Positions 2,969 to 12,509 of a DNA stretch of 15,931 bases are shown one piece after another. The DNA is taken from the NCBI GenBank assembly GCA_031418155.1, contig JANOWZ010000417.1:1-15931 (forward strand), given 5' to 3'. The first letter of the stretch is position 1. Each line of letters starts with the position of its first letter. The notes below the pieces were generated by a model. The model saw only the letters and a program-made list of their open reading frames with translations, was not told the origin of the DNA and made no database searches. The position numbers were made by a program, and so were the translations under genes. The DNA comes from Deinococcales bacterium (GTDB lineage: Bacteria > Deinococcota > Deinococci > Deinococcales > JAAFIG01).

Positions 2969-5119
2969 TCATCGCTTGCTGGCTTTAACCTCCCCGAGTG
3001 CGTTCTCGAGGTCGGATTGTGTTATCTCGAGGCTAATGCTTTCGTTGTCACCAGTTTCTTTCGTTGAATTAGGTATCGAGGCCACAATTGCGTTCTTGGC
3101 GAGGTGAGCTTGCAAGACCAGCATTGCCGCGCGTCGCACCAACCATTCGAGGTCGGCACCGCTCCAACCCTCTGTCTTTGCGGCCAGGGCATCCAGATTA
3201 AGCTCGCCAGCCGTCGCACGACCCCTCAAATGCACACCGAGGATTTCTGCCCGGTCCGATTCACTTGGCAATTTGAACTCGAGCACCTGTTCAAAGCGCC
3301 CAGGACGCAGTAAAGCCGGATCGAGCGATTCGGGCCGATTCGTTGCGCCCAAAATGATCACGTTCCCAAGACTCGAGATGCCATCCATTTCGGCCAGGAA
3401 TTGACCAATCACCCGGCTCGAGACGGCATCCGCATCGGCACGGTTCGCCAACAATGCGTCGATCTCGTCGAAGAAGACCACGCACGGGGCGCTGGCTCGG
3501 GCCTTGCGGAAGAGTTCGCGCACGGCCTTCTCGGACTCGCCGTAGTACCTCGAGAGAAATTGAGCACCACGCACGGCGATGAAATTCGCCTCGGATTCTT
3601 TGGCGACAGCCCGTGCCGTCAACGTCTTGCCGGTTCCGGGAGGACCCGCCAGCAAGATTCCACGCGGAGGCTCGAGCCGGAGTTGCGCGAACAATTCAGG
3701 GTGCTTGAGGGGAGCCTCGACCGCCTCGATCAATGCGGCTTTGACCTCAGACAAACCACCGATCTCCGTCCAACTCGCACCGGCAATATCGGATTCGGTC
3801 TCGCGGATCAAACTCGGTGAAACCTCACGCAGGGCTGCACGGAAATCCTCCACGCCAACCTCGAGTTGCAACATTTCCTGCGCACTCGGACCTCGACCTG
3901 AGGCCGTCCACGTTGGCAACTGTGAACGGACGCGGTGCATTCCAGCCTCTCGAGCCAAGGCCGCCAAATCCGCACCGACAAAGCCGTGTGTGATTCGCGC
4001 CAAGTCATCCAAATTCACGTCCGGCATCAATGGCATCGCCCGCGTGTGAACCTCAAGGATTTCGCGCCTGCCTTTTGCATCCGGCGGATTGATGACCACT
4101 TCGCGGTCAAACCGTCCGGGCCGACGCAAGGCCGGATCGAGGTTGTCCGGCAGGTTGGTCGCACCGATCACCACGACCTGACCGCGCCCGCCGAGGCCAT
4201 CCATCAACGAGAGGAGTTGCGCAACGACACGCTTCTCGACCTCGCCCTGAACCTCAGAACGCTTCGGACCAATCGCGTCGATCTCGTCCAAGAAAATAAT
4301 GCTCGGGGCTTTCGCTCGAGCCTCCTGAAAAATTTCGCGCAAACGCTTTTCCGAATCCCCATAAAACTTGCCAATGATTTCCGGGCCAGCCACCGAAATG
4401 AAATGCGCCCGTGTCTCACGCGCCACGGCTCGAGCAATCGTGGTCTTGCCGGTTCCGGGCGGGCCGTACAACAACACCCCTTTCGGAGGATCGATTCCCA
4501 ACTGCTCGAACACCTGCGGATAACGCAATGGCAACTCGACCAACTCGCGGACTCGAGCAACCTCACGCGATAAACCGCCGATGTCCTCGTAGCTTGCGCT
4601 CGAAGAAGATTGGGCTGGAGCTTGCGCCTCGCCGGAATTCTCGAGCGCCAAACGCGACTCGCCTCCGACCAACGCATGCGATCCAGGCTCGATGGATTTC
4701 ACCCGCAACTCCAATACCTTCGAGCCGAACAACTCCACGCGAACCCGATCACCCGCCGTCAACGCACGGTCCTGCAACAACGTCTTCAAATCCGAGATTG
4801 CCACGCCCGCACCAGAAATCACCTCGAGCACCACGCTCCGTGCCAAGACCGGCTCGAGTCTTGCAACACGCACTTTCGCACCGATGCTCGAACCCGCATT
4901 TTCTCGGGCCAAACCATCCAGCAACACGCCACGATCACGGTCCTCGGGTCTGGACGGCAACGCACGAACCGCCGTGCTGCGCTCACCCGTGACGACAATC
5001 ACACCACCGGCACGCACGCCCAAACGCTCGAGGTCGGCAGGGGACAGGCGGGCGAGGCCACGGCCCGCATCACGCGGCGCGGCCTCGGCGACGACGATCT
5101 CGAGGGCATCGATTACCAT
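2969..5119 (-). CDS. CDC48/VAT/p97-like AAA+ ATPase (N-domain plus two AAA modules)
   Basis: A CDC48-type N-domain ([21 protein letters not shown]) is followed by two complete AAA cassettes. D1 has [16 protein letters not shown] and [23 protein letters not shown]2 has [18 protein letters not shown] and [21 protein letters not shown]. The ORF track begins at a TTG (5131). The first ATG is at 5119. Confidence 0.85.
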
Positions 5120-5233
5120 GTTGGGTTCCAATTGCGGTTCTGTCGTAGGGGCATCGTGTAATGCACGCTGTTGCGTGACGCATGCCTCGCCCCTACATTC
5201 GCGTTCGCCGAATCAACAACTTGCATCAAACCC

Positions 5234-5725
5234 TCAACCCGCGAACGGAACCATCAACTCGAGGATTCCGTTCTGATAAGACTTCGTGAATTCACCTTTG
5301 ACGGCTTTGGAAAGCTCGAGCGTCTTCGCGTACTTGCGTGCCGCTGCACCGTTCGCTTCAAGCTTCAAGGTTTGTCCCTCGAGCGTGACTTGAATGCTGC
5401 TTTCAACCGCGCCTGGAAGTTCGGCAATCACGCTGTAATGTCCGGTTTCCTCTAGCACGTCAACCATCGGTTCGCGCACGGGTTCGACGCTGGGGTTGCC
5501 ACCGTTGTTCGCCATGTTGCCGAATGTGGAGACGGTCGGTTCACCATTTAAGTTCGTGCGAATGTTGACCCCGATCACACCCTCGAGTCCAGATTTTGTC
5601 GTGAAATTCTGCGTGCCGCCTTCAGCGTTTCCCGCCTGTTTTTGCAATTCTTGAACGACCTCGAGAAGATTGTTGATACCGGAAAAAATTCCGCCAAGTC
5701 CGCTGTTGTCGTTGGTTTTCGCCAT
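5234..5725 (-). CDS. Hsp20/alpha-crystallin family small heat-shock protein (GvpH-like)
   Basis: The alpha-crystallin domain is recognisable: VDVLEETGHYSVIAELPGAVESSIQVTLEGQTLKLEA ... KSYQNGILELMVP. An AGGAGA ribosome-binding site lies about 9 nt upstream of the ATG. The N-terminal region is Gly/Asn-rich. Confidence 0.75.
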   Translation of the reverse strand: MAKTNDNSGLGGIFSGINNLLEVVQELQKQAGNAEGGTQNFTTKSGLEGVIGVNIRTNLNGEPTVSTFGNMANNGGNPSVEPVREPMVDVLEETGHYSVIAELPGAVESSIQVTLEGQTLKLEANGAAARKYAKTLELSKAVKGEFTKSYQNGILELMVPFAG

Positions 5726-6235: not shown

Positions 6236-7240
6236 TTACAACGTCATGGCGCGTGATGGTTTGCGTTCACCACCGGCAAGCACGGGCTCGCGGATCTCGA
6301 GGATTTCCGTGCGTTCTGCTGTACGCTCGAGTGGTTTGATGGTGCGGGCTTTCGGCAAGAGGTGCAGCATTTTGGCAACCGCTTGGCTCGAGACGGTATG
6401 GCGTTCGTGTTCGTCGCTGATGCTGCCGGTCAGGACATCCAAAACCACGCGCTCGAACTCAAGGTTTCCGGCGCTGACTTCAAGGTTGCGGACGCTGGCT
6501 ACTCGAGCGATTTGCAGTGCGGCGCGAACGCTGTGTTTGATTTTCAGTTTGCTTTCGCCACGCACGCTGGCGACCAGTTCGGTGATGGCGAGCGCATCTT
6601 CGAGTTGCAATCCTGATCGGGCGGCAACAATTCCGCCTTGCGTCTCGAGGTCGAATCCCTCTAAACGCATGGTCACTAGGCGATCACGCAAGGCTTCTTG
6701 CGCGAGGTGCACTCCGGCGTAATCTTCCGGGTTGCTGGTGAAAATCGCTCGGAAGTCCGGGTGAACTTTCATGTACCCGCCCTTGCCCGCCGCGCTCGGG
6801 TAGATCAAAATACCTTCCTCGAGCACCGGCAACAGGACGTTGTTCGCTTCGGCTTTGGAGCGTGTGAACTCGTCATAAACGAGCGTGTAACCGTTCTTGC
6901 AGGCAATCGTCAGTCGTTCATCGACCCAGGAATTGCTGGAATCTTCGTCCACTTTCAAAACGCTGTGGATGTAGTTGTCCACGACTTTGCGGCGGCGAAA
7001 TCCGTTGTTCGCGCCCAGCAAATTGCTGGAACCAAACTCGTTGTCACCGGCGATCAGCACCATCGGGCGGCCCAGTTTCGTGGCGACATGCAACGCGAGT
7101 GTGGTTTTTCCGGTGCCGCTCGCGCCTTCAAAGTTCACGCCGAGGCCAGCCTCGAGATATCCCAAAGCGCGTTTGGTCAGGTCTTTGACCTGCGCGGTTT
7201 CAACGAAATCTTCGCGCTGTTTGGTGCTGATTTGACTCAT
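6236..7240 (-). CDS. gvpN: Gas vesicle protein GvpN (MoxR-like AAA+ ATPase)
   Basis: FVETAQVKDLTKRALGYLEAGLGVNFEGASGTGKTTLALHVATKLGRPMVLIAGDNEF matches the conserved GvpN N-terminus and Walker A closely. Walker B VYDEFTRS is present. The ATG overlaps the upstream stop (ATGA at 7237..7240). Confidence 0.9.
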   Translation of the reverse strand: MSQISTKQREDFVETAQVKDLTKRALGYLEAGLGVNFEGASGTGKTTLALHVATKLGRPMVLIAGDNEFGSSNLLGANNGFRRRKVVDNYIHSVLKVDEDSSNSWVDERLTIACKNGYTLVYDEFTRSKAEANNVLLPVLEEGILIYPSAAGKGGYMKVHPDFRAIFTSNPEDYAGVHLAQEALRDRLVTMRLEGFDLETQGGIVAARSGLQLEDALAITELVASVRGESKLKIKHSVRAALQIARVASVRNLEVSAGNLEFERVVLDVLTGSISDEHERHTVSSQAVAKMLHLLPKARTIKPLERTAERTEILEIREPVLAGGERKPSRAMTL

Positions 7241-7983
7241 GCGCCACTCGAGACGTAACCGTTATCGGAAAGTTTGATTTTGCCGCTGGCGACAAGGCGT
7301 TTGAGCATCGTGGCAACTTCGCTTTGATCGAGTTTCAAGCCTTGTGCGAGGTCCTCGAGTGACAATCCTGGAACGCTCGAGATGGTGCGCAAGACGATGT
7401 GCTCGCGGCGTTTCTCGACTGGGTTCAGCACGGCAACGCCGACGGAAAGAGCGCCCTGCGGCATTGGTTTGGCGGCAGGCTTGCTGGCTGGACGGGCCGC
7501 ACGCACGACTGGTTTGACATCCGATCCGCGCATTTGACGGGCGAATCCCTCGAGTTGTTCACGCATGACCGCACGTGCGGTGGCGTGAGCCTCGAGCAAT
7601 TGACCTGTTTCGGCACTGAGCGTTTCGCGTTCACTGGCGCGTTTGCTGGCATCACGGCGGGCGCTCGAGATTCGTTTTGCACCTTGAGCGGCAAGTGTTT
7701 CTTGCACCGTGGCTTTGCGTTGGTTGTTTTCGTGTGCGCGATCAGTTGCGCGTTGAGCGCCCTGGGTGCTGCGAATCTCCGCGATAATCTCGAGCTTCGC
7801 ATGAACGGCTTGCGCTTGGGTTGCAACCTCGTTTGCACGGGCGATGTGTTCAACGGCGCGGATGGTACTTGCCGCCACGAATTCTTCGCGGCGTTCCTGA
7901 TCAAAATTCAGGCGGTCGCTGGCGGATTTGTTCAGTTTCTCGCGCAGTGCGGCTCCAGCCTGGTCATCTAATGTCATCGGCAT
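7237..7983 (-). CDS. Hypothetical coiled-coil protein with KPAAKP-type linker and C-terminal winged-helix-like domain; gene directly downstream of gvpA (possible GvpC-like structural or regulatory role)
   Basis: It is Ala/Glu/Arg/Gln-rich and predicted helical over roughly the first 150 aa. A VKPVVRAARPASKPAAKPMP linker follows. The C-terminus HIVLRTISSVPGLSLEDLAQGLKLDQSEVATMLKRLVASGKIKLSDNGYV resembles a winged-helix (LexA/ArsR-like) fold. The ribosome-binding site is AAAGGTGA. Confidence 0.55.
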   Translation of the reverse strand: MPMTLDDQAGAALREKLNKSASDRLNFDQERREEFVAASTIRAVEHIARANEVATQAQAVHAKLEIIAEIRSTQGAQRATDRAHENNQRKATVQETLAAQGAKRISSARRDASKRASERETLSAETGQLLEAHATARAVMREQLEGFARQMRGSDVKPVVRAARPASKPAAKPMPQGALSVGVAVLNPVEKRREHIVLRTISSVPGLSLEDLAQGLKLDQSEVATMLKRLVASGKIKLSDNGYVSSGA

Positions 7984-8196: not shown

Positions 8197-8415
8197 TCAG
8201 ACTGCTGGTGCGGCGACCGTCGAGGTCAAACCGATGGCTTCGGCGTACTTCAAGTACGTCTCGACCGATGCAGCAACGACGCGGGCTTCGATGGCGATCA
8301 ATTCGATGCCGACCAGTGAGACGCGGGCGAATGCGTCGATGACGATGCCTTTGTCCAGGATGCGGTCCACAACTTCGCCGAGGCTCGAGGAGTTCATGCT
8401 TTTTTCGACTGCCAT
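8197..8415 (-). CDS. gvpA: Gas vesicle structural protein GvpA
   Basis: [64 protein letters not shown] is a near-consensus GvpA (72 aa). The ATG at 8415 is preceded by a GGAGGT ribosome-binding site. The ORF-track entry 8197..8592 is an in-frame upstream extension with no support. Confidence 0.95.
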
Positions 8416-8840
8416 ATGTACCTCCGTAAAATTTGAATTCTTGGTTCTTGCCCAGGGATAAATGGGGCGATGTTGGGAAAAGAGGTTCAAGAATTCTTTT
8501 GGGTGTTTTTCCGGTTCTTGCCGGTGTGTGAATGGTGCACCCTCGAGCAAGGTTTGAGTAAGCCTCTTCTGGGTATTGGGTATACCCCCCATTTGGGTAT
8601 GCCCGTTTGGGGCTGGTCAAGTTGCGGTCTCGCGCCTACTTTGTTTGGACTCGGAACTGTGGCAAAACTTGTGTGATGCACAGTATTTGTGGGTTCCGCT
8701 ACAGTTTGGTGGTTTGAAAGAATTTTGCAAGAGATGGTTCGGCAAACTGAAGCTCTGGCAAGGGCGAAAAGTTGAACAGGGCTTCTACAAGTTCAGGCCG
8801 ATAAGTTCCAGGCCAGCAGCACAACGAAAGGGGGCGTGAG
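8416..8840. promoter_or_regulatory. About 425 bp divergent regulatory region between gvpA (-) and the acidic E2-like gene (+)
   Basis: It holds no convincing ORF. It contains the GGGTATACCC palindrome plus two more GGGTAT half-sites (about 8570..8606), direct repeats GGTTCTTGCC (8443..8452 and 8513..8522) each near GAATTCTT, and TTGAAC hexamers on both divergent sense strands. Confidence 0.5.
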
Positions 8841-10661
8841 TTGAGTACACGAGGATTCGGCGACACAGACTGGACCGACGGGTTTTCTCGACCGTGGGAT
8901 GTTTCCGTGGCATCATTTGAAGCCATCGAAACCGACCTGGACGAGTTGATCGACCCGGACGGGATCGAGTCTGCATTGGCCATCGACGATCAGGGGAATT
9001 TCCTCGCCTGGATGGATTCGGAACGCGGGATGGCTCCAGTGCCGCTCGCGGCTTCAGAGTTCGAGGCTCCGGTGGCGCAAGATTTGAACGCGCCAGCGGC
9101 GAAAGTGTCTAAGGGTTTCAAACGGTTCACGCCGCCAGTTCCGGTGGTTGAGCCCAGCGAACCGACGACCTATCAGGCCAGCAGCGAGGCGATTGATGCG
9201 GTGTTTGCCGAACTCGAGGCGAGCGCCAAAGCCAGCACAGAACAGTCAGATGCACCCGAGGTTGAGGCGCAGGCAGATGTTCAGGTTCAGGCCGATTCGG
9301 ACATTTATGCTGAGGTCCATTCTGAAGATCAAGACGATCAGGGTGCGGTTGAAGCAAAGGCCAAGAAGCCAAAAATTGATCCGATGGCGCTCGAGGATGC
9401 GTTCGAGAGTGTGCCGTTTGACCTTCCAGAGTTGATGGGCGAACAGTCTGGCACTGTACTCAGTGAGCAACCTGTCGCGCTCGAGGGTGAAGCGGAGGCG
9501 GTCGAAGCTCAGGCAGAAGTTGAACTCCCAGCAGTTGAAGCTCAGGCAGAAGTGGTCGAGGTTGAAGTTCCAGCAATCGAAGCTCAGGTTGAAGTTGTTG
9601 AGGCCGAAGCAATTGTCATTCCCGAGGGCGAACCGGTCGAACCCGTCGCCGCCTGGAAGAAGCCCGTCAAACCCAAAAAGCAACCCAGCGAATTTGGCAT
9701 CGACGAAGTTCCACTCGAAGCGCTGCTCGAGATTGCGAATACCGAGGCCGAAGACGAAGAGAATCATGCCGAGGCCGAAGCCGTCACGATTGACCTGCAA
9801 CCCGAGGCGGATGCGCTTGCCGCAGTTGGCTTGGGCGAAGCAAGCCTTCAGGAAGGCATCATGGCCGCTTACGAGATGGAGGGTGCGCCAATCACCGATT
9901 TGAGCGCATTGATCGAGAGCAGCAAAGCACTCGAGGTTTCAACCGCCCGTGAAGCGGTCAACGAACCGGTCGCCACACCCGTTCATGCCGGATTTGTTGC
10001 TACTGCTGAAAGCAATGAATCGCCAGAGGCCGTGCTCCAGGCGCTCGAGACCAGCGTGCTCGGATTTGAAACACCAGAGATTCAACCGCTCGATGCAGAA
10101 CTCGAAACGGATTCCAGCGTCGCGGCAGTGCTGGCCCCAGAAATCATGAATGTCCCGATGATGCCCGCGACGACCACGTTGCGCCGTCACTTCGACGCGA
10201 CCGACCTGATCGAAGCGCAGATTCGTTTGCGTCACGCACTGCGCCCATTGGACGTTTCGATGGTCTCGCTCTTGGGTCGCGCCGCCGAACGTTGCGCCCT
10301 CGAGTTGCCGGGAATCAAAACGATTGCACTCGCCGAACTCGGCGACAATGGGATTGCAGTCACCGCCAAGATCAAAGCCGTCGAAAGCTTCCGCGAGATG
10401 CTTGCGGGCATCAGCGAGGGCTCGAGCGGCGTTCGTGGCGACCTGAGCGTCGTTGACATCAGCGACCTCGGCTTGGATGAAGTGGTCTTGCCACTCGCCG
10501 GACCGCACCTCTTGCTGACCCGTCTTTCGCCACACCCGGACAAACCGGGTCGCATGCGCGGCACGGTCTCTCTCTCTGGCCTCGTGAACCTTCGCGCTGG
10601 CGCATCATTCCTCGATCAGGTCGTCTCGAAACTCGAGGCTCCGATCACGCTGATGGTCTGA
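8841..10661 (+). CDS. Acidic tandem-repeat protein with a C-terminal 2-oxoacid dehydrogenase E2 acyltransferase (CAT-like) catalytic-domain homologue lacking the catalytic His/Asp
   Basis: A TTG start is preceded by an AAAGGGGG ribosome-binding site. The N-terminal roughly 430 aa are highly acidic and low-complexity with EAQAEV-type repeats. The C-terminal roughly 170 aa align to the E2 catalytic domain: RRHFDATDLIEAQIRLRH against HFDKTDITELEAFRK, VVDISDLGLDEV against FTISSIGGLG, and TVSLSGLVNLRAGASFLDQVVSKLEAP against ISLSFDHRVIDGADGARFI. In that alignment DHR is replaced by LVN. Confidence 0.7.
   Translation: MSTRGFGDTDWTDGFSRPWDVSVASFEAIETDLDELIDPDGIESALAIDDQGNFLAWMDSERGMAPVPLAASEFEAPVAQDLNAPAAKVSKGFKRFTPPVPVVEPSEPTTYQASSEAIDAVFAELEASAKASTEQSDAPEVEAQADVQVQADSDIYAEVHSEDQDDQGAVEAKAKKPKIDPMALEDAFESVPFDLPELMGEQSGTVLSEQPVALEGEAEAVEAQAEVELPAVEAQAEVVEVEVPAIEAQVEVVEAEAIVIPEGEPVEPVAAWKKPVKPKKQPSEFGIDEVPLEALLEIANTEAEDEENHAEAEAVTIDLQPEADALAAVGLGEASLQEGIMAAYEMEGAPITDLSALIESSKALEVSTAREAVNEPVATPVHAGFVATAESNESPEAVLQALETSVLGFETPEIQPLDAELETDSSVAAVLAPEIMNVPMMPATTTLRRHFDATDLIEAQIRLRHALRPLDVSMVSLLGRAAERCALELPGIKTIALAELGDNGIAVTAKIKAVESFREMLAGISEGSSGVRGDLSVVDISDLGLDEVVLPLAGPHLLLTRLSPHPDKPGRMRGTVSLSGLVNLRAGASFLDQVVSKLEAPITLMV
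9500..9620 (+). repeat. Imperfect tandem DNA repeat (about 3 units of 33 to 42 nt, core GAAGCTCAGGCAGAAGT) encoding VEAQAEV(V/E) repeats
   Basis: GAAGCTCAGG(C/T)(A/T)GAAGT recurs at about 9506, 9540 and 9582. Confidence 0.6.
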
Positions 10662-10689: not shown

Positions 10690-10758
10690 TGTGCTAGACG
10701 CGAACAAGAATTTCTCGAGCAATATTTTAAAAATTATCATGCAGTGGAAAGGAAACAT
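10690..10758 (+). promoter_or_regulatory. AT-rich segment (TTTCTCGAGCAATATTTTAAAAATTATCATG) upstream of the HD-GYP gene; candidate promoter
   Basis: The local AT-richness is unusual in a window of roughly 58% GC. It lies directly upstream of the GGAAAGGAAA ribosome-binding site and the ATG at 10759. No exact -35/-10 assignment is made. Confidence 0.3.
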
Positions 10759-11403
10759 ATGAGTGATCTCTTCAGAGACGGTTTCATTGACGAGATCGTT
10801 GATGCCTACGTCAAGGACTTCGGCGACCGCGTGGAAAACACCGACCGCTTCGAGCACTACTCCCCAGGACATGCCCGTCGTGTAGCCGAAACCAGCGTCG
10901 CCATCTGCGAAGGTTTGGATTTCGAGGAAGAAGACATTCGCGTCGTCAAAACCGCCGGGTTGCTCCACGACATCGGCGAGGTCATTCAAAAGCACGCCTT
11001 CTACGGCGCACCTCGAGTCTTGACCCCAGAAGAAACCGTTGAGATGTGGCAACACAGCCTGATCGGTGAACGCGAAGTGGCACGTCGCGGTTTTGGACGC
11101 AAAGAACAGTTGCTGGTGCGTTGGCATCACGAACGCTGGAACGGTCAGGGCTACCCGGACATGCTGTTCGGACCCGACTTGCCGCTCGGTGCTCGCATCA
11201 TCCGTTTGGCGGACACCTGGGATGCGCTGACAAACGACCGTCCGTGGCGTTTGGCGATGTCTGAAGCCGATGCGCTCGAGGAGATCAAACTCGGTGCAGG
11301 CATGGAGTTCGATCCAGAACTCGTCGGCTTGTTCCTCGAGTTGCACCAATGCGGAGCCTTGATCCCAAGTGAAAACTTCGCCATCTCAGGAGGCAAACGA
11401 TGA
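10759..11403 (+). CDS. HD-GYP domain protein (stand-alone cyclic-di-nucleotide phosphodiesterase-like)
   Basis: The HD motif (LLHDIGEV) and the HD-GYP signature WHHERWNGQGYPD are both present. The start is assigned to the ATG at 10759, 5 nt after the GGAAAGGAAA ribosome-binding site. The ORF track begins at a GTG at 10744. Confidence 0.8.
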   Translation: MSDLFRDGFIDEIVDAYVKDFGDRVENTDRFEHYSPGHARRVAETSVAICEGLDFEEEDIRVVKTAGLLHDIGEVIQKHAFYGAPRVLTPEETVEMWQHSLIGEREVARRGFGRKEQLLVRWHHERWNGQGYPDMLFGPDLPLGARIIRLADTWDALTNDRPWRLAMSEADALEEIKLGAGMEFDPELVGLFLELHQCGALIPSENFAISGGKR

Positions 11404-12338
11404 GTGGCGTCAAAGAATACGTCGGCGCAGAAGTCATGCTGCTCTCAAAAGTCCTCAAGCTCGAGAGTGTCGCCGTACCCTTCGGTGGACGCAACCCAAT
11501 GTGGCTCGGCTGGTGGATGAAGACTTTGGGCAAGAGCGTGCACATGAACGACCTGTTGCACTTTTCATACATGGACTCGGTCGGCCTGATCGAAAACGAA
11601 GGCTTCTTGTTGGACGGCGACACCCTCGGCGAACTGACCAAAGACATCGGCGACGGCAAGCAACTGACCAACCCAGAACTCGCCCGTCTCGTCCCAATGC
11701 AAGACGCATACTTCTTTGATCAACTTCGTCCACGCATCGAAAAACTGCCAGCCCGTCAAAAAGGTATCGCCATTCGAGCCGGATACAACACCATGCGATA
11801 CGCCCAAGTCATGGACTCCTCGAGATTCGTGAACCTGCGCGTCTCCCTCGACAAAGTCTTCGCCCGTGAAGTCGAAGAGATCAACAAGCGCATCACCTCG
11901 AGCGGCAAAGGCCAAGCGTACATGGAAGAGGCCGGAAGCTTCGTCGGCAACGTTCGCGCCAGCGCCCTGTACATGCAACTGCCAAGCATGGGCGGCTTCA
12001 GCACCGAATACGCTGCGGGCGCACGTCCACGCGGACCACTCGGACGCGAAATCTGGGCACGCGGCCCAAGCAAAACCTGGATGCCAGAACTGAAGGCCGC
12101 CACCAAAGGCACCTTCGGCGACCGCTTCACCTCACGCGAAGCGTACTTCAAAATGGTCTCGGAATTCCTCGAGAAAGCCAACGATTACCCAGTCTGGGTG
12201 TTCAACCTCGAAGAAAGCGAATACCCCGATGTCCTGCGTGCCGTGATGCAGTTCCGTAAGCCAAAAGCCGTGCATCGTTTTGACACACGCGAAGCGAGCG
12301 GCGGGTACATGAGCTACTTCTTGATCGCAGAGAAATAA
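11400..12338 (+). CDS. Dam-like (D12-class N6-adenine methyltransferase fold) protein with a non-canonical motif IV (MQLPS in place of DPPY); translationally coupled to the HD-GYP gene
   Basis: An ATGA overlap with the HD-GYP stop spans 11400..11403. Residue patterns parallel E. coli Dam: KEYVGAEVMLLSKVL against KWAGGKYPLLDDI, VPFGGR against PFVGAG, HMNDLLHFSYM against ADINSDLISLY, and RAGYNTMRYA against NRYGYNGLCRYN. The position expected for DPPY reads YMQLPSMGG. No [DNS]PP[YFW] occurs anywhere in the protein. Confidence 0.5.
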   Translation: MSGVKEYVGAEVMLLSKVLKLESVAVPFGGRNPMWLGWWMKTLGKSVHMNDLLHFSYMDSVGLIENEGFLLDGDTLGELTKDIGDGKQLTNPELARLVPMQDAYFFDQLRPRIEKLPARQKGIAIRAGYNTMRYAQVMDSSRFVNLRVSLDKVFAREVEEINKRITSSGKGQAYMEEAGSFVGNVRASALYMQLPSMGGFSTEYAAGARPRGPLGREIWARGPSKTWMPELKAATKGTFGDRFTSREAYFKMVSEFLEKANDYPVWVFNLEESEYPDVLRAVMQFRKPKAVHRFDTREASGGYMSYFLIAEK

Positions 12339-12365
12339 GCTCGAGAATTTAACAAGCTGAATCAT

Positions 12366-12399
12366 TTCCCGCTCGAGGTTTGGGCGGGGAATTTTGTTG
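12366..12399 (+). terminator. Putative rho-independent terminator after the Dam-like gene
   Basis: The stem TTCCCGC..GCGGGGAA with loop TCGAGGTTTGG is followed by AATTTTGTT. Confidence 0.4.
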
Positions 12400-12509
12400 G
12401 TCTCAAGGCGGTAAGCCATTGAACGCATTGCCGTAGATGCCCGCGCTGAATATGCTTTCCCGAATGATTCAACCCACACTGATTCGGAAATCTGTCTCGA
12501 GCCTCGGGG

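Follow-up and report, generated by a model that had tools for sequence, protein, structure and literature searches.

The acidic gene beside gvpA

The window, that is, the entire analysed stretch of 15,931 nucleotides from a Deinococcales bacterium, encodes a 606-residue acidic protein (pI 4.09) at positions 8841 to 10661 of the forward strand, from a TTG start to a stop codon at 10659-10661. This protein, referred to below as the pseudo-E2, comes from a genuine reading frame and has homologues in 39 clusters. Its TTG start is backed by homologues that begin with ATG, with MSTQGFDGTDW aligned to MSTRGFGDTDW, and database entries of 584 residues (P0001) place the start 22 codons further in. Reverse-strand reading frames inside the gene (9246-9800 and 9939-10535) were dismissed, as both the amino acid conservation and the in-frame insertions and deletions track the forward frame. 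The principal genes and signals of the region are as follows.

8197 to 8415, reverse strand: gvpA, the divergent neighbour (Pfam PF00741, E 3.2e-14)
8570 to 8600, no strand assigned: operator-like block of three TGGGTAT copies in the gvpA/pseudo-E2 intergenic region, with the palindrome GGGTATACCC among them
8827 to 8834, forward strand: Shine-Dalgarno-like AAAGGGGG, with a 6-nucleotide spacer to the TTG, by direct reading of the sequence
8841 to 10661, forward strand: acidic pseudo-E2 gene, the first gene of a three-gene unit
10744 to 11403, forward strand: stand-alone HD-GYP domain protein with HHERWNGQGYP (Pfam HD_5, E 5e-26), the second cassette gene
11400 to 12338, forward strand: 312-residue protein with a weak class-I methyltransferase-like fold, the third cassette gene
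12364 to 12402, forward strand: terminator-like hairpin (13-bp stem and T-run) that closes the three-gene unit

The product of the second gene also matches an NCBIfam c-di-GMP phosphodiesterase domain, and its stop codon overlaps the start of the third (ATGA); no family match to the 312-residue protein was found in Pfam or NCBIfam. The pseudo-E2 and gvpA genes are divergent, as an earlier note on this DNA had stated, and lie 425 bp apart, and the operator-like motif that lies between them is conserved.

Architecture of the protein

The pseudo-E2 consists of a short N-terminal motif, a long acidic linker and a C-terminal core domain, within which the following features were distinguished.

8916 to 9023, forward strand: acidic N-terminal motif FEAIETDLDELIDPDGIESALAIDDQGNFLAWMDSE (residues 26-61), at the position that the PSBD occupies in PSBD-bearing relatives
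9024 to 10148, forward strand: acidic linker rich in Ala, Glu, Val and Pro, of differing length between homologues
residues 175-194: conserved island KKPKIDPMALEDAFESVPFD, short, in an otherwise variable linker
residues 279-297: a second such short island, KKQPSEFGIDEVPLEALLE
9488 to 9603, forward strand: short tandem repeats (two DNA repeats) coding for VEAQAEV-type peptides
10149 to 10658, forward strand: degenerate E2/CAT-fold core domain of about 170 residues (437-606), from the AF2 model, Foldseek, hhalign and the domains of relatives
10443 to 10493, forward strand: best-conserved family segment LSVVDISDLGLDEVVLP
10569 to 10604, forward strand: dead active site, SLSGLVNLRAGA, which pairs with E2 SLSFDHRVIDGA in a gap-free alignment
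10632 to 10658, forward strand: extreme C-terminus, LEAPITLMV

The acidic repeat region of the linker (residues 76-436) has a pI of 4.05 and a composition of 17.7% alanine, 16.9% glutamate and 11.1% valine, and acidic linkers are found family-wide, with 21-26% aspartate plus glutamate, 2-4% lysine plus arginine and 24% alanine plus proline. The acidic, Glu/Ala/Val-rich character that had been reported for this region was thus borne out; its tandem repeats proved to be short (42 bp x 2.0 at 9519-9603 and 15 bp x 3.9 at 9488-9549) and form no extensive array.

The motif at residues 26-61 is common to all relatives that do not carry a PSBD, the branch to which the window protein belongs, and eleven of its positions are invariant in alignment A1 (L33, D38, P39, E43, I48, D49, G52, F54, L55, W57 and E61). 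Neither a PSBD (PF02817) nor a lipoyl domain was found by Pfam in the window protein, in agreement with what had been read from the sequence originally. The motif was also considered as a degenerate PSBD and rejected (hhalign probability 0.2%); MAFFT had merely stacked the two. The window branch has exchanged the PSBD for this acidic motif of about 35 residues, with the pattern DLxDxLDPDxLE...IDxxG.

A degenerate E2 core

The last 170 or so residues had been proposed to resemble the catalytic domain of dihydrolipoamide acyltransferases (E2), and several lines of evidence uphold that proposal. An AF2 model of residues 435-606 (pLDDT 74.8, pTM 0.76) has a CAT-like fold, and when it was compared against the PDB with Foldseek, E2 catalytic cores took ranks 1-38 and 40-49 among the first 50 matches (E 2.6e-8 to 1e-5), with the first, 8x03, labelled only 'mitochondrial soluble protein' and rank 39 occupied by a Bacteroides O-acetyltransferase. 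Profile-profile comparison of the pseudo-E2 family with E. coli AceF and SucB by hhalign gave P values of 2.6e-5 (global) and 4.3e-4 (local), with an E2 side that comprised only those two sequences (Neff 1.6), and was free of gaps from GASFL to the common C-terminus. A homologue search with the SucB catalytic domain returned only enterobacterial SucB sequences of 97-100% identity, and hence no richer E2 profile. Searching AceF and SucB with a 184-sequence family profile by hmmsearch recovered just two short fragments, in register, of 4-6 bits.

The pseudo-E2 core is only about 16% identical to E2s, and searches by sequence did not reach them. No Pfam family matched the whole protein at E<=0.1, and the Pfam check for PF00198 (2-oxoacid_dh) that had been suggested for the C-terminal region came out negative: the last 188 residues matched no family even at E<=10, and PF00198 stayed below its threshold. 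NCBIfam searches with the 606-residue protein, and searches of PDB sequences with phmmer and a 19-sequence profile, likewise gave no E2 or CAT match. In relatives, PF00198 appeared below threshold in 10 of 90 (best E 8.7e-4) and never at threshold, and for that reason the homology rests on the predicted structure, the profile-profile comparison and the architecture of the relatives. The conserved domain begins at the equivalent of E2 strand B; strand A and helix 1, which in E2 have a part in the CoA site, are absent.

The alignment also accounts for the active site. Without gaps, SLS-G-L-V-N-L-R-A-G-A lies against SLS-F-D-H-R-V-I-D-G-A of E2, so that the catalytic histidine corresponds to Val582 and the two aspartates to Leu581 and Ala586. 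The loss of the DHRxxDG motif that had been described earlier is therefore upheld, with its register moved by one residue, and across the family the histidine column holds a histidine in 1 of 184 sequences and a hydrophobic residue in the other 183. One clade (P0012-P0026) carries a histidine one position past the canonical site. Among the further motif matches that had been claimed, HFD.TD, SLS and the C-terminal block are in register; the TIS.LG match is seen by eye only, where LSVVDISDLGLDEVVLP appears to correspond to the E2 strand 'FTIS.LG...P', and hhalign aligns that segment differently. The C-terminal domain of the pseudo-E2 is an E2/CAT-fold core without its catalytic residues.

The wider family and its conserved positions

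A profile of the window clade detected 202 proteins at E<=1e-3, 104 of them at E<=1e-10, and among the 150 matches listed the domain match ended no more than two residues from the C-terminus in every one. Two positions, D539 and P601, are invariant in the family (alignments A4, n=147, and A5, n=90). Conservation of at least 90% in both alignments was found for R448, R449, A481, D546, L550, L559, R561, L576, L578, G580, L591, L598 and L604, and in A4 alone for R480. The best-conserved segment, LSVVDISDLGLDEVVLP, which contains D539, D546 and L550, has low AF2 confidence (pLDDT 44-54). At the C-terminus, LEAPITLMV, which contains L598, P601 and L604, aligns without gaps to 'LEDPxRLLL' of E2 and stops where AceF stops; in E2, the C-terminal segment forms the inter-trimer knob.

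The PSBD, which is the module that recruits E3 or E1 in 2-oxoacid dehydrogenase complexes, is present at the N-terminus of 72 of 90 relatives (PF02817), and a lipoyl domain (PF00364) in none of the 90. Deinobacterium chartae supplies a relative that carries a name, 'E3 binding domain-containing protein' (WP_246351511.1, P0089; HMM E 1e-14). It is such PSBD-bearing relatives that establish E2 ancestry. In the neighbourhoods examined they are stand-alone genes, with no linkage to HD-GYP, 312-residue or gvp genes, and the function may therefore differ between the branches.

The conserved cassette and its linkage to gvp genes

The HD-GYP gene and the 312-residue gene lie 3' of the pseudo-E2 gene in every locus that includes downstream sequence, and the cassette was seen in the window and in L001, L002, L004-L010, L015, L020, L021, L023 and L025-L027. 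The neighbours of the pseudo-E2 comprise gvp genes, the HD-GYP and 312-residue proteins, an ABC exporter and a methyltransferase, and no E1, E2 or E3 gene was present in any neighbourhood examined. The earlier note overlooked the two cassette partners as well as the PSBD-bearing relatives.

The co-occurrence with gvpA that had been put forward as a check gave a mixed picture. The pseudo-E2 gene adjoins gvpA in seven distinct Deinococcales-type loci, namely the window and six others (L004/L005, L006, L007, L008, L010 and L016/L017), five of the six being in Deinococcales metagenome-assembled genomes and L016/L017 consisting of unbinned contigs. In L023 and L025-L027 the only gvp neighbour of the same cassette is a single GvpF/L gene, and in L020 and L021 it has no gvp gene beside it. 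These counts are small, and scans of metagenome contigs added 0 and 1 usable loci. The divergent neighbour of 176-178 residues in L020 and L021 was tried as a truncated GvpF/L and rejected on testing. Because the cassette also occurs without gvpA, the invariant partners of the pseudo-E2 are the HD-GYP and 312-residue proteins, and not gvpA; synteny with gvpA is limited to a clade, and it is by synteny alone that the protein is linked to gas vesicles.

The TGGGTAT block is conserved in seven loci, and within the 15.9-kb window its three copies are the only occurrences of that heptamer (0.28 expected). A winged-helix protein of 248 residues is encoded at 7237-7983. Since the cassette stands head-to-head with gvpA across this conserved, operator-like block, it is probably co-regulated with gas-vesicle formation in those Deinococcales that bear gas vesicles, and it possibly acts on that process.

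Interpretation

The reading that we prefer, and to which we would give slightly better than even chances, is that the pseudo-E2 is a pseudoenzyme descended from a dihydrolipoamide acyltransferase of 2-oxoacid dehydrogenase complexes, which is no longer an enzyme and serves as an oligomeric hub. The protein has kept the E2 layout of an N-terminal binding module, a long flexible linker and a C-terminal CAT-fold core; it has lost the lipoyl domains, replaced the PSBD with the acidic motif and trimmed the core to about 170 residues. What appears to be most conserved is an interface-type strand (D539, D546 and L550) and the C-terminal LExPxxL segment, and these interface-type positions suggest that the domain was probably retained for oligomerisation; by analogy with E2, the core probably forms a trimer or an assembly of higher order. 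The result would be a multivalent hub whose several acidic arms each end in a binding motif. Given the conserved three-gene transcription unit, its likeliest clients or partners would be the two proteins encoded with it, namely the HD-GYP (c-di-GMP-type) phosphodiesterase and the one that resembles methyltransferases.

The conservation of charged residues can also be taken in another direction: in about 150 diverse members several of them vary little or not at all, and the P0012-P0026 clade has its displaced histidine, as might be expected of an acyltransferase or other enzyme that employs a non-canonical site (Asp539 with Arg448, Arg449 and Arg561 in place of the His-Asp dyad). Against an active enzyme of that kind stand the almost uniformly hydrophobic histidine column, the missing strand A and helix 1 and the absence of a lipoyl substrate arm, and the conserved residues would moreover sit in segments that are interfaces in E2; we regard such an activity as very improbable indeed. 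A role comparable to that of E3BP, in which the degenerate core would join the organism's real E2 core and use its new N-terminal motif to tether some partner that is not E3, draws on the PSBD kept by most relatives and on the gap-free match to the E2 C-terminus. The window protein itself has neither PSBD nor lipoyl domain, however, its core is without the N-terminal strand and helix which take part in the trimer contacts of E2, and both the low identity to E2s and the neighbourhoods devoid of E1, E2 and E3 genes weigh further against this adaptor role, which strikes us as distinctly doubtful.

More is to be said for an organising or structural protein of the gas vesicle, close to what the earlier note had in mind, with an oligomeric dead core whose arms bind the GvpA shell or GvpF/L and which, acting apart from the HD-GYP enzyme, coats, spaces or clusters vesicles as a functional counterpart of GvpC or GvpU. 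Every Deinococcales-type locus examined that has full gvp genes shows the pseudo-E2 gene head-to-head with gvpA, with the operator-like motif between them; a residual GvpF/L gene flanks the cassette in several loci that have no gvpA; and a multivalent acidic linker would suit a surface or spacing role. In the clade without gvpA, furthermore, the pseudo-E2 diverged much faster than its operon partners (46% identity to the window protein, as compared to 90% for HD-GYP and 86% for the 312-residue protein), which fits a constraint on the pseudo-E2 that is tied to the gvp genes. Against it, the pseudo-E2 matches no Gvp family in Pfam or NCBIfam, a repeat search found no 33-residue repeats of the GvpC type, and loci that have no gvpA still carry the whole cassette, two of them (L020 and L021) with no gvp gene at all, so that a gas-vesicle-specific function is not needed for its retention. 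The literature searched described no such component; no paper on gas vesicles in Deinococcota was found, and searches that combined gas vesicles with Deinococcus or Deinococcota, PSBD, HD-GYP or E3-binding-domain proteins gave nothing relevant. On balance, we think it unlikely that the protein is such a vesicle component.

The preferred reading of a non-enzymatic hub can be extended to a bolder form, in which the dead core would build an E2-style cage or large oligomer whose dozens of arms recruit the HD-GYP and methyltransferase-like proteins, or bind GvpA or GvpF/L. It would then be a new, E2-derived organising centre that in Deinococcota links the formation of gas vesicles to signalling by cyclic nucleotides, with the larger PSBD-bearing sister family as a bacterial counterpart of E3BP. 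As a whole, this is a speculative picture, and one that we would not expect to hold.

With the family, which numbers at least 202 clusters at 50% identity, the E2 acyltransferase superfamily would gain a bacterial branch of pseudoenzymes. The E2 design of a core plus a tethered arm is here seen reused outside 2-oxoacid dehydrogenases. The analysis also flags a conserved cassette (pseudo-E2, HD-GYP and methyltransferase-like proteins) that stands head-to-head with gvpA in an uncultured Deinococcales lineage, and offers gas-vesicle researchers a concrete candidate for a regulator or organiser, and protein engineers a possible E2 scaffold that has been 'emptied' naturally.

Comparison with known systems

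E2 catalytic cores (PF00198; AceF and SucB; PDB 4n72, 1scz and 1eaa) and the pseudo-E2 share the same order of secondary structure from strand B onward, the HFD.TD, RAA..A, SLS and GA.FL....LE.P..L motifs in register, and the placement of the core at the extreme C-terminus after a long Ala/Pro/acidic linker. They differ in that the pseudo-E2 core has about 170 residues rather than about 230, with strand A and helix 1 gone and its loops shortened, and in that the protein has no lipoyl domain or PSBD, carries V, L and A in place of the DHRxxDG histidine and aspartates, yields no match at Pfam threshold and has no E1 or E3 genes alongside.

To our knowledge, the textbook example of an inactive E2 has so far been the eukaryotic E3BP (protein X), which co-assembles into a real E2 core. 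Like that E2 paralogue of eukaryotic PDH (PDB 6h60), the pseudo-E2 core has no catalytic histidine, whereas E3BP, an integral part of a real PDH core, possesses both a lipoyl domain and a PSBD, and the window protein lacks the two and lies outside any PDH gene context. The bacterial 'E3 binding domain-containing proteins', as exemplified by P0089, are closer: they occur in the same phylum too and have the same histidine-less end of about 170 residues and a long acidic linker, but are stand-alone and mostly (72/90) bear an N-terminal PSBD that the window protein does not have. With GvpC, GvpU and other such gas-vesicle proteins, finally, the pseudo-E2 has in common a gvpA neighbour, a repetitive or low-complexity sequence and a possible external or organising role; it shows no kinship to them in sequence or fold, and unlike them it is found in some genomes without gvpA.

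Gene arrangement and the start of the target

The minus-strand gas-vesicle cluster to the left of gvpA encodes a 248-aa protein with a C-terminal winged-helix domain, GvpN, a 96-aa coiled-coil protein, an Hsp20-like protein, a CDC48-type double AAA+ ATPase, a GvpF/L-DnaJ fusion, two further GvpF/L proteins and GvpG. The gene considered here (the target) lies 425 bp from gvpA on the opposite strand, which bears out the divergent transcription described in the earlier note; to its right follow genes for an HD_5/HD domain protein, a 312-aa protein, an ABC exporter and a methyltransferase, of which the last two are not conserved neighbours.

2008-2952, minus: GvpF/L-DnaJ fusion (PF06386, E 2e-24; C-terminal J domain PF00226, E 7e-8)
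2969-5131, minus: CDC48-type double AAA+ ATPase with CDC48_N, 720 aa, inside the gvp cluster
5234-5725, minus: Hsp20-like protein, inside the gvp cluster
7237-7983, minus: 248-aa winged-helix protein
8197-8415, minus: gvpA (PF00741, E 3.2e-14)
8570-8600 (block 8560-8614), gvpA/target intergenic: TGGGTAT inverted-repeat cluster, including the palindrome GGGTATACCC
8841-10661, plus: target, 606 aa, TTG start, with AAAGGGGG just upstream
10744-11403, plus: stand-alone HD-GYP protein (signature HHERWNGQGYP; matches a c-di-GMP phosphodiesterase domain model)
11400-12338, plus: 312-aa protein
12364-12402, plus: strong terminator-like hairpin (13-bp stem, 12364-12392) and T-run, 3' of the 312-aa gene

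Publicly called versions of the target (P0001/P0002, 584 aa) begin at GTG 8907, 22 codons past TTG 8841. The longer N-terminus, MSTRGFGDTDW, aligns to the MSTQGFDGTDW of ATG-starting homologues, and conservation of the 22 upstream residues (8841-8906) in those homologues marks TTG 8841 as the real start, the database versions being probably 22 codons too short. Downstream, the HD-GYP and 312-aa genes overlap, stop on start, and the hairpin follows, so that the target, HD-GYP and 312-aa genes (the cassette) look like one transcription unit. The 312-aa protein matched no family; its predicted fold is weakly methyltransferase-like.

Within the gvp cluster, the GvpF/L-DnaJ fusion is kept in the other Deinococcales loci and suggests recruitment of Hsp70 to gas-vesicle assembly, and the CDC48-type ATPase and Hsp20-like protein are both kept in five of five loci from metagenome-assembled genomes (MAGs).

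Layout of the target protein

A word-indexed search returned 39 homologue clusters, in none of which was a Pfam domain found. Their alignment resolves three parts: an acidic N-terminal motif (aa 26-61, with invariant L33, D38, P39, E43, I48, D49, G52, F54, L55, W57 and E61), an acidic linker that varies in length and contains short conserved islands, and a C-terminal domain, some 170 aa long, in which conservation is strong. With a pI of 4.05, the linker (aa 76-436) is rich in Ala (17.7%), Glu (16.9%) and Val (11.1%), and carries small tandem repeats at 9488-9603 (42 bp x 2, 15 bp x 3.9), much as the earlier reading of the sequence had described it. Across the family, linkers are acidic and Ala/Pro-rich (D+E 21-26%, K+R 2-4%) and look like exaggerated versions of the inter-domain linkers of E2, the dihydrolipoamide acyltransferase of 2-oxoacid dehydrogenase complexes.

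E2 ancestry of the C-terminal domain

The domain is beyond the reach of direct searches: the Pfam comparison that had been proposed (2-oxoacid_dh, PF00198) gave no family for the C-terminal region even at E<=10, NCBIfam gave none for the target, and neither phmmer nor a 19-sequence profile found an E2 or chloramphenicol acetyltransferase (CAT) among PDB sequences. Four independent lines nevertheless agree, and because of that agreement E2 descent of the target family is near-certain. In structure, Foldseek was run against the PDB with an AlphaFold model covering aa 435-606 (pLDDT 74.8, pTM 0.76): among the first 50 matches, E2 catalytic cores fill ranks 1-38 and 40-49 (E 2.6e-8 to 1e-5) and CAT I comes 50th. 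In profile-profile comparison, hhalign matched a 184-sequence family alignment to a thin E2 profile built from the E. coli AceF and SucB catalytic domains (P 2.6e-5 global, 4.3e-4 local), and recovered the register proposed from inspection (HFD.TD helix, RAA..A helix, SLS strand and GA.FL...LE.P..L); HMMER placed the same two helices in register, at 4-6 bits only. In an exhaustive search, the HMM of the window clade matched 202 proteins at E<=1e-3 (104 at E<=1e-10); in each of the 150 listed, the matched region covers about 170 aa and stops no more than two residues short of the C-terminus. Finally, the peripheral subunit-binding (E3-binding) domain, PSBD, is known from E2 proteins and from E3BP, their inactive eukaryotic paralogue; it occurs (as PF02817) at the N-terminus of 72 of 90 relatives scanned, one relative (from Deinobacterium chartae) being annotated 'E3 binding domain-containing protein'. 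Ten of the 90 also gave PF00198 matches below threshold (best E 8.7e-4), and none had a lipoyl domain.

The branch of the window lacks the PSBD, which is missing from roughly 17 of the closest representatives and from 39/39 close homologues; the claim that the target has neither PSBD nor lipoyl domain holds. These PSBD-less relatives share the motif DLxDxL(D/E)PDx(L/F)Ex..(I/L)x(I/L)Dx.G, and the possibility that the N-terminal motif is related to the PSBD was rejected (hhalign probability 0.2%). Median linker length is 234 aa in PSBD-less types versus 350 aa in PSBD types. The PSBD-bearing proteins (P0051-P0185; loci L018 and L019), to which the D. chartae protein belongs, form a large uncharacterised family in which a PSBD precedes a 300-500-aa acidic linker and a His-less E2 core of about 170 aa. 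They have no HD-GYP or gvp neighbours at L018 and L019, and may represent a bacterial E3BP-like family.

A dead catalytic site and the pattern of conservation

The stretch from SLS to GA is equal in length in the window and in E2s, which places SLS-G-L-V-N-L-R-A-G-A against SLS-F-D-H-R-V-I-D-G-A without gaps. The catalytic His falls on Val582, and the Asp residues on Leu581 and Ala586, confirming the loss reported earlier. Among 184 family members the His column holds V, L, F or I, with His in one; the preceding column retains D or E in 86. The domain starts level with E2 strand B, so it lacks strand A and helix 1; several loops are also shortened, this last as first described. With the catalytic residues replaced, that strand and helix missing and no lipoyl arm present, canonical acyl transfer by the target is excluded to the extent that sequence evidence allows.

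Conservation was scored in two alignments of diverse members (147 and 90 sequences). D539 and P601 are invariant in both; R448, R449, A481, D546, L550, L559, R561, L576, L578, G580, L591, L598 and L604 are at least 90% conserved in both, and R480 at least 90% in the 147-sequence alignment. One conserved patch is the strand-loop LSVVDISDLGLDEVVLP, which by visual comparison matches the E2 'FTIS.LG...P' segment, is placed differently by hhalign, and has low pLDDT (44-54) in the monomer model. The other is the extreme C-terminus, LEAPITLMV, which aligns gaplessly with AceF ...LSDIRRLVM and SucB ...LEDPTRLLL and ends level with AceF; in E2 cores this stretch forms the hydrophobic 'knob' by which trimers assemble into 24- or 60-mers. 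Since conservation of a catalytically dead domain concentrates in interface-type elements, we infer that the core has been kept for oligomerisation.

The intergenic region and genomic context

TGGGTAT occurs three times in the 15.9-kb window (0.28 expected), always within 8570-8600, and seven loci share the ATACCC-N4-GGGTAT block together with the TGGG half-sites on its flanks. The block is plausibly an operator for the divergent promoters, and the 248-aa winged-helix protein is a candidate for binding it. The spacer itself (425 bp) is some 170-230 bp longer than in six other loci (192-252 bp); the extra sequence (8640-8820), just upstream of the target, has no counterpart there.

All five genome-collection matches were Deinococcales MAGs. 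Loci L004, L006, L007, L008 and L010 repeat the order of the window (gvp cluster, gvpA, then the divergent target, HD protein and 312-aa protein), and gvpA is also divergent from the target in L016/L017. For co-occurrence with gvpA, a check suggested earlier, the counts are small: seven distinct arrangements are gvpA-adjacent; one arrangement, on several contigs (L023, L025-L027), has only a lone 223-aa GvpF/L gene beside the cassette, neither gvpA nor gvpN being found within 10 kb; and two loci (L020, L021) are gvp-free, the divergent neighbour being an unrelated 176-178-aa protein. In L015, from a Deinococcota MAG, the cassette sits at a contig end. The cassette is more constant than its link to gvp genes. 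Within it the HD-GYP protein (83-90%) and 312-aa protein (66-86%) are far better conserved than the target (40-58%). Because L023 is 90% and 86% identical to the window in these partners versus 46% in the target, the sequence constraints on the target have changed where gvpA is absent; this agrees with a gvp-related role without being proof of one.

The loci with the lone GvpF/L gene (L023 8991-13136, L025-L027) form a sister clade in which the gvp cluster is down to that gene; its target is shorter, at 456-476 aa when counted from its own start (two entries use a start further upstream and so measure 506-507 aa), and has a His one position past the canonical catalytic site (SLCGLEHSQAGA). PatA_N/DUF4388 (PATAN) domain proteins lie directly downstream of the cassette in L004 (13194-15527, plus PAS domains) and L020 (5390-6985), two otherwise different contexts, which hints at a wider signalling neighbourhood.

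Interpretation and comparison with known systems

In the target, a dead, truncated E2-derived core is joined to an acidic linker and a new acidic motif at the N-terminus, the lipoyl domain and PSBD having been lost; the gene resides in a conserved cassette and, in one clade, head-to-head with gvpA across a conserved motif. We favour, by a little over even chances, an E2-derived pseudoenzyme whose core is retained to oligomerise, making the target a multivalent hub whose clients would most likely be its operon partners and/or Gvp proteins; the hub and its partners are much less certain than the pseudoenzyme.

A dedicated gas-vesicle surface or organising protein, close to the role first proposed, would fit the seven gvpA-adjacent arrangements but sits poorly with the gvp-free loci, and we consider it unlikely. 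An E3BP-like subunit, incorporated into genuine E2 cores, would suit the ancestry and the PSBD-bearing relatives; the target itself has no PSBD, and this reading appears more doubtful still. A non-canonical enzyme, for which the invariant or nearly invariant charged residues of the family might speak, faces the lost catalytic residues and is very improbable.

A search of the library of papers at hand returned none linking gas vesicles to Deinococcota, E2/PSBD proteins or HD-GYP, and a 2022 review of Gvp proteins does not mention an acyltransferase-like component. For the favoured hub, the model is the E2/E3BP logic of a core plus tethered binding modules. E3BP is the nearest known concept, relative to which the target is new in that it is bacterial, has no lipoyl domain, carries an exchanged module at its N-terminus and keeps new genomic partners.
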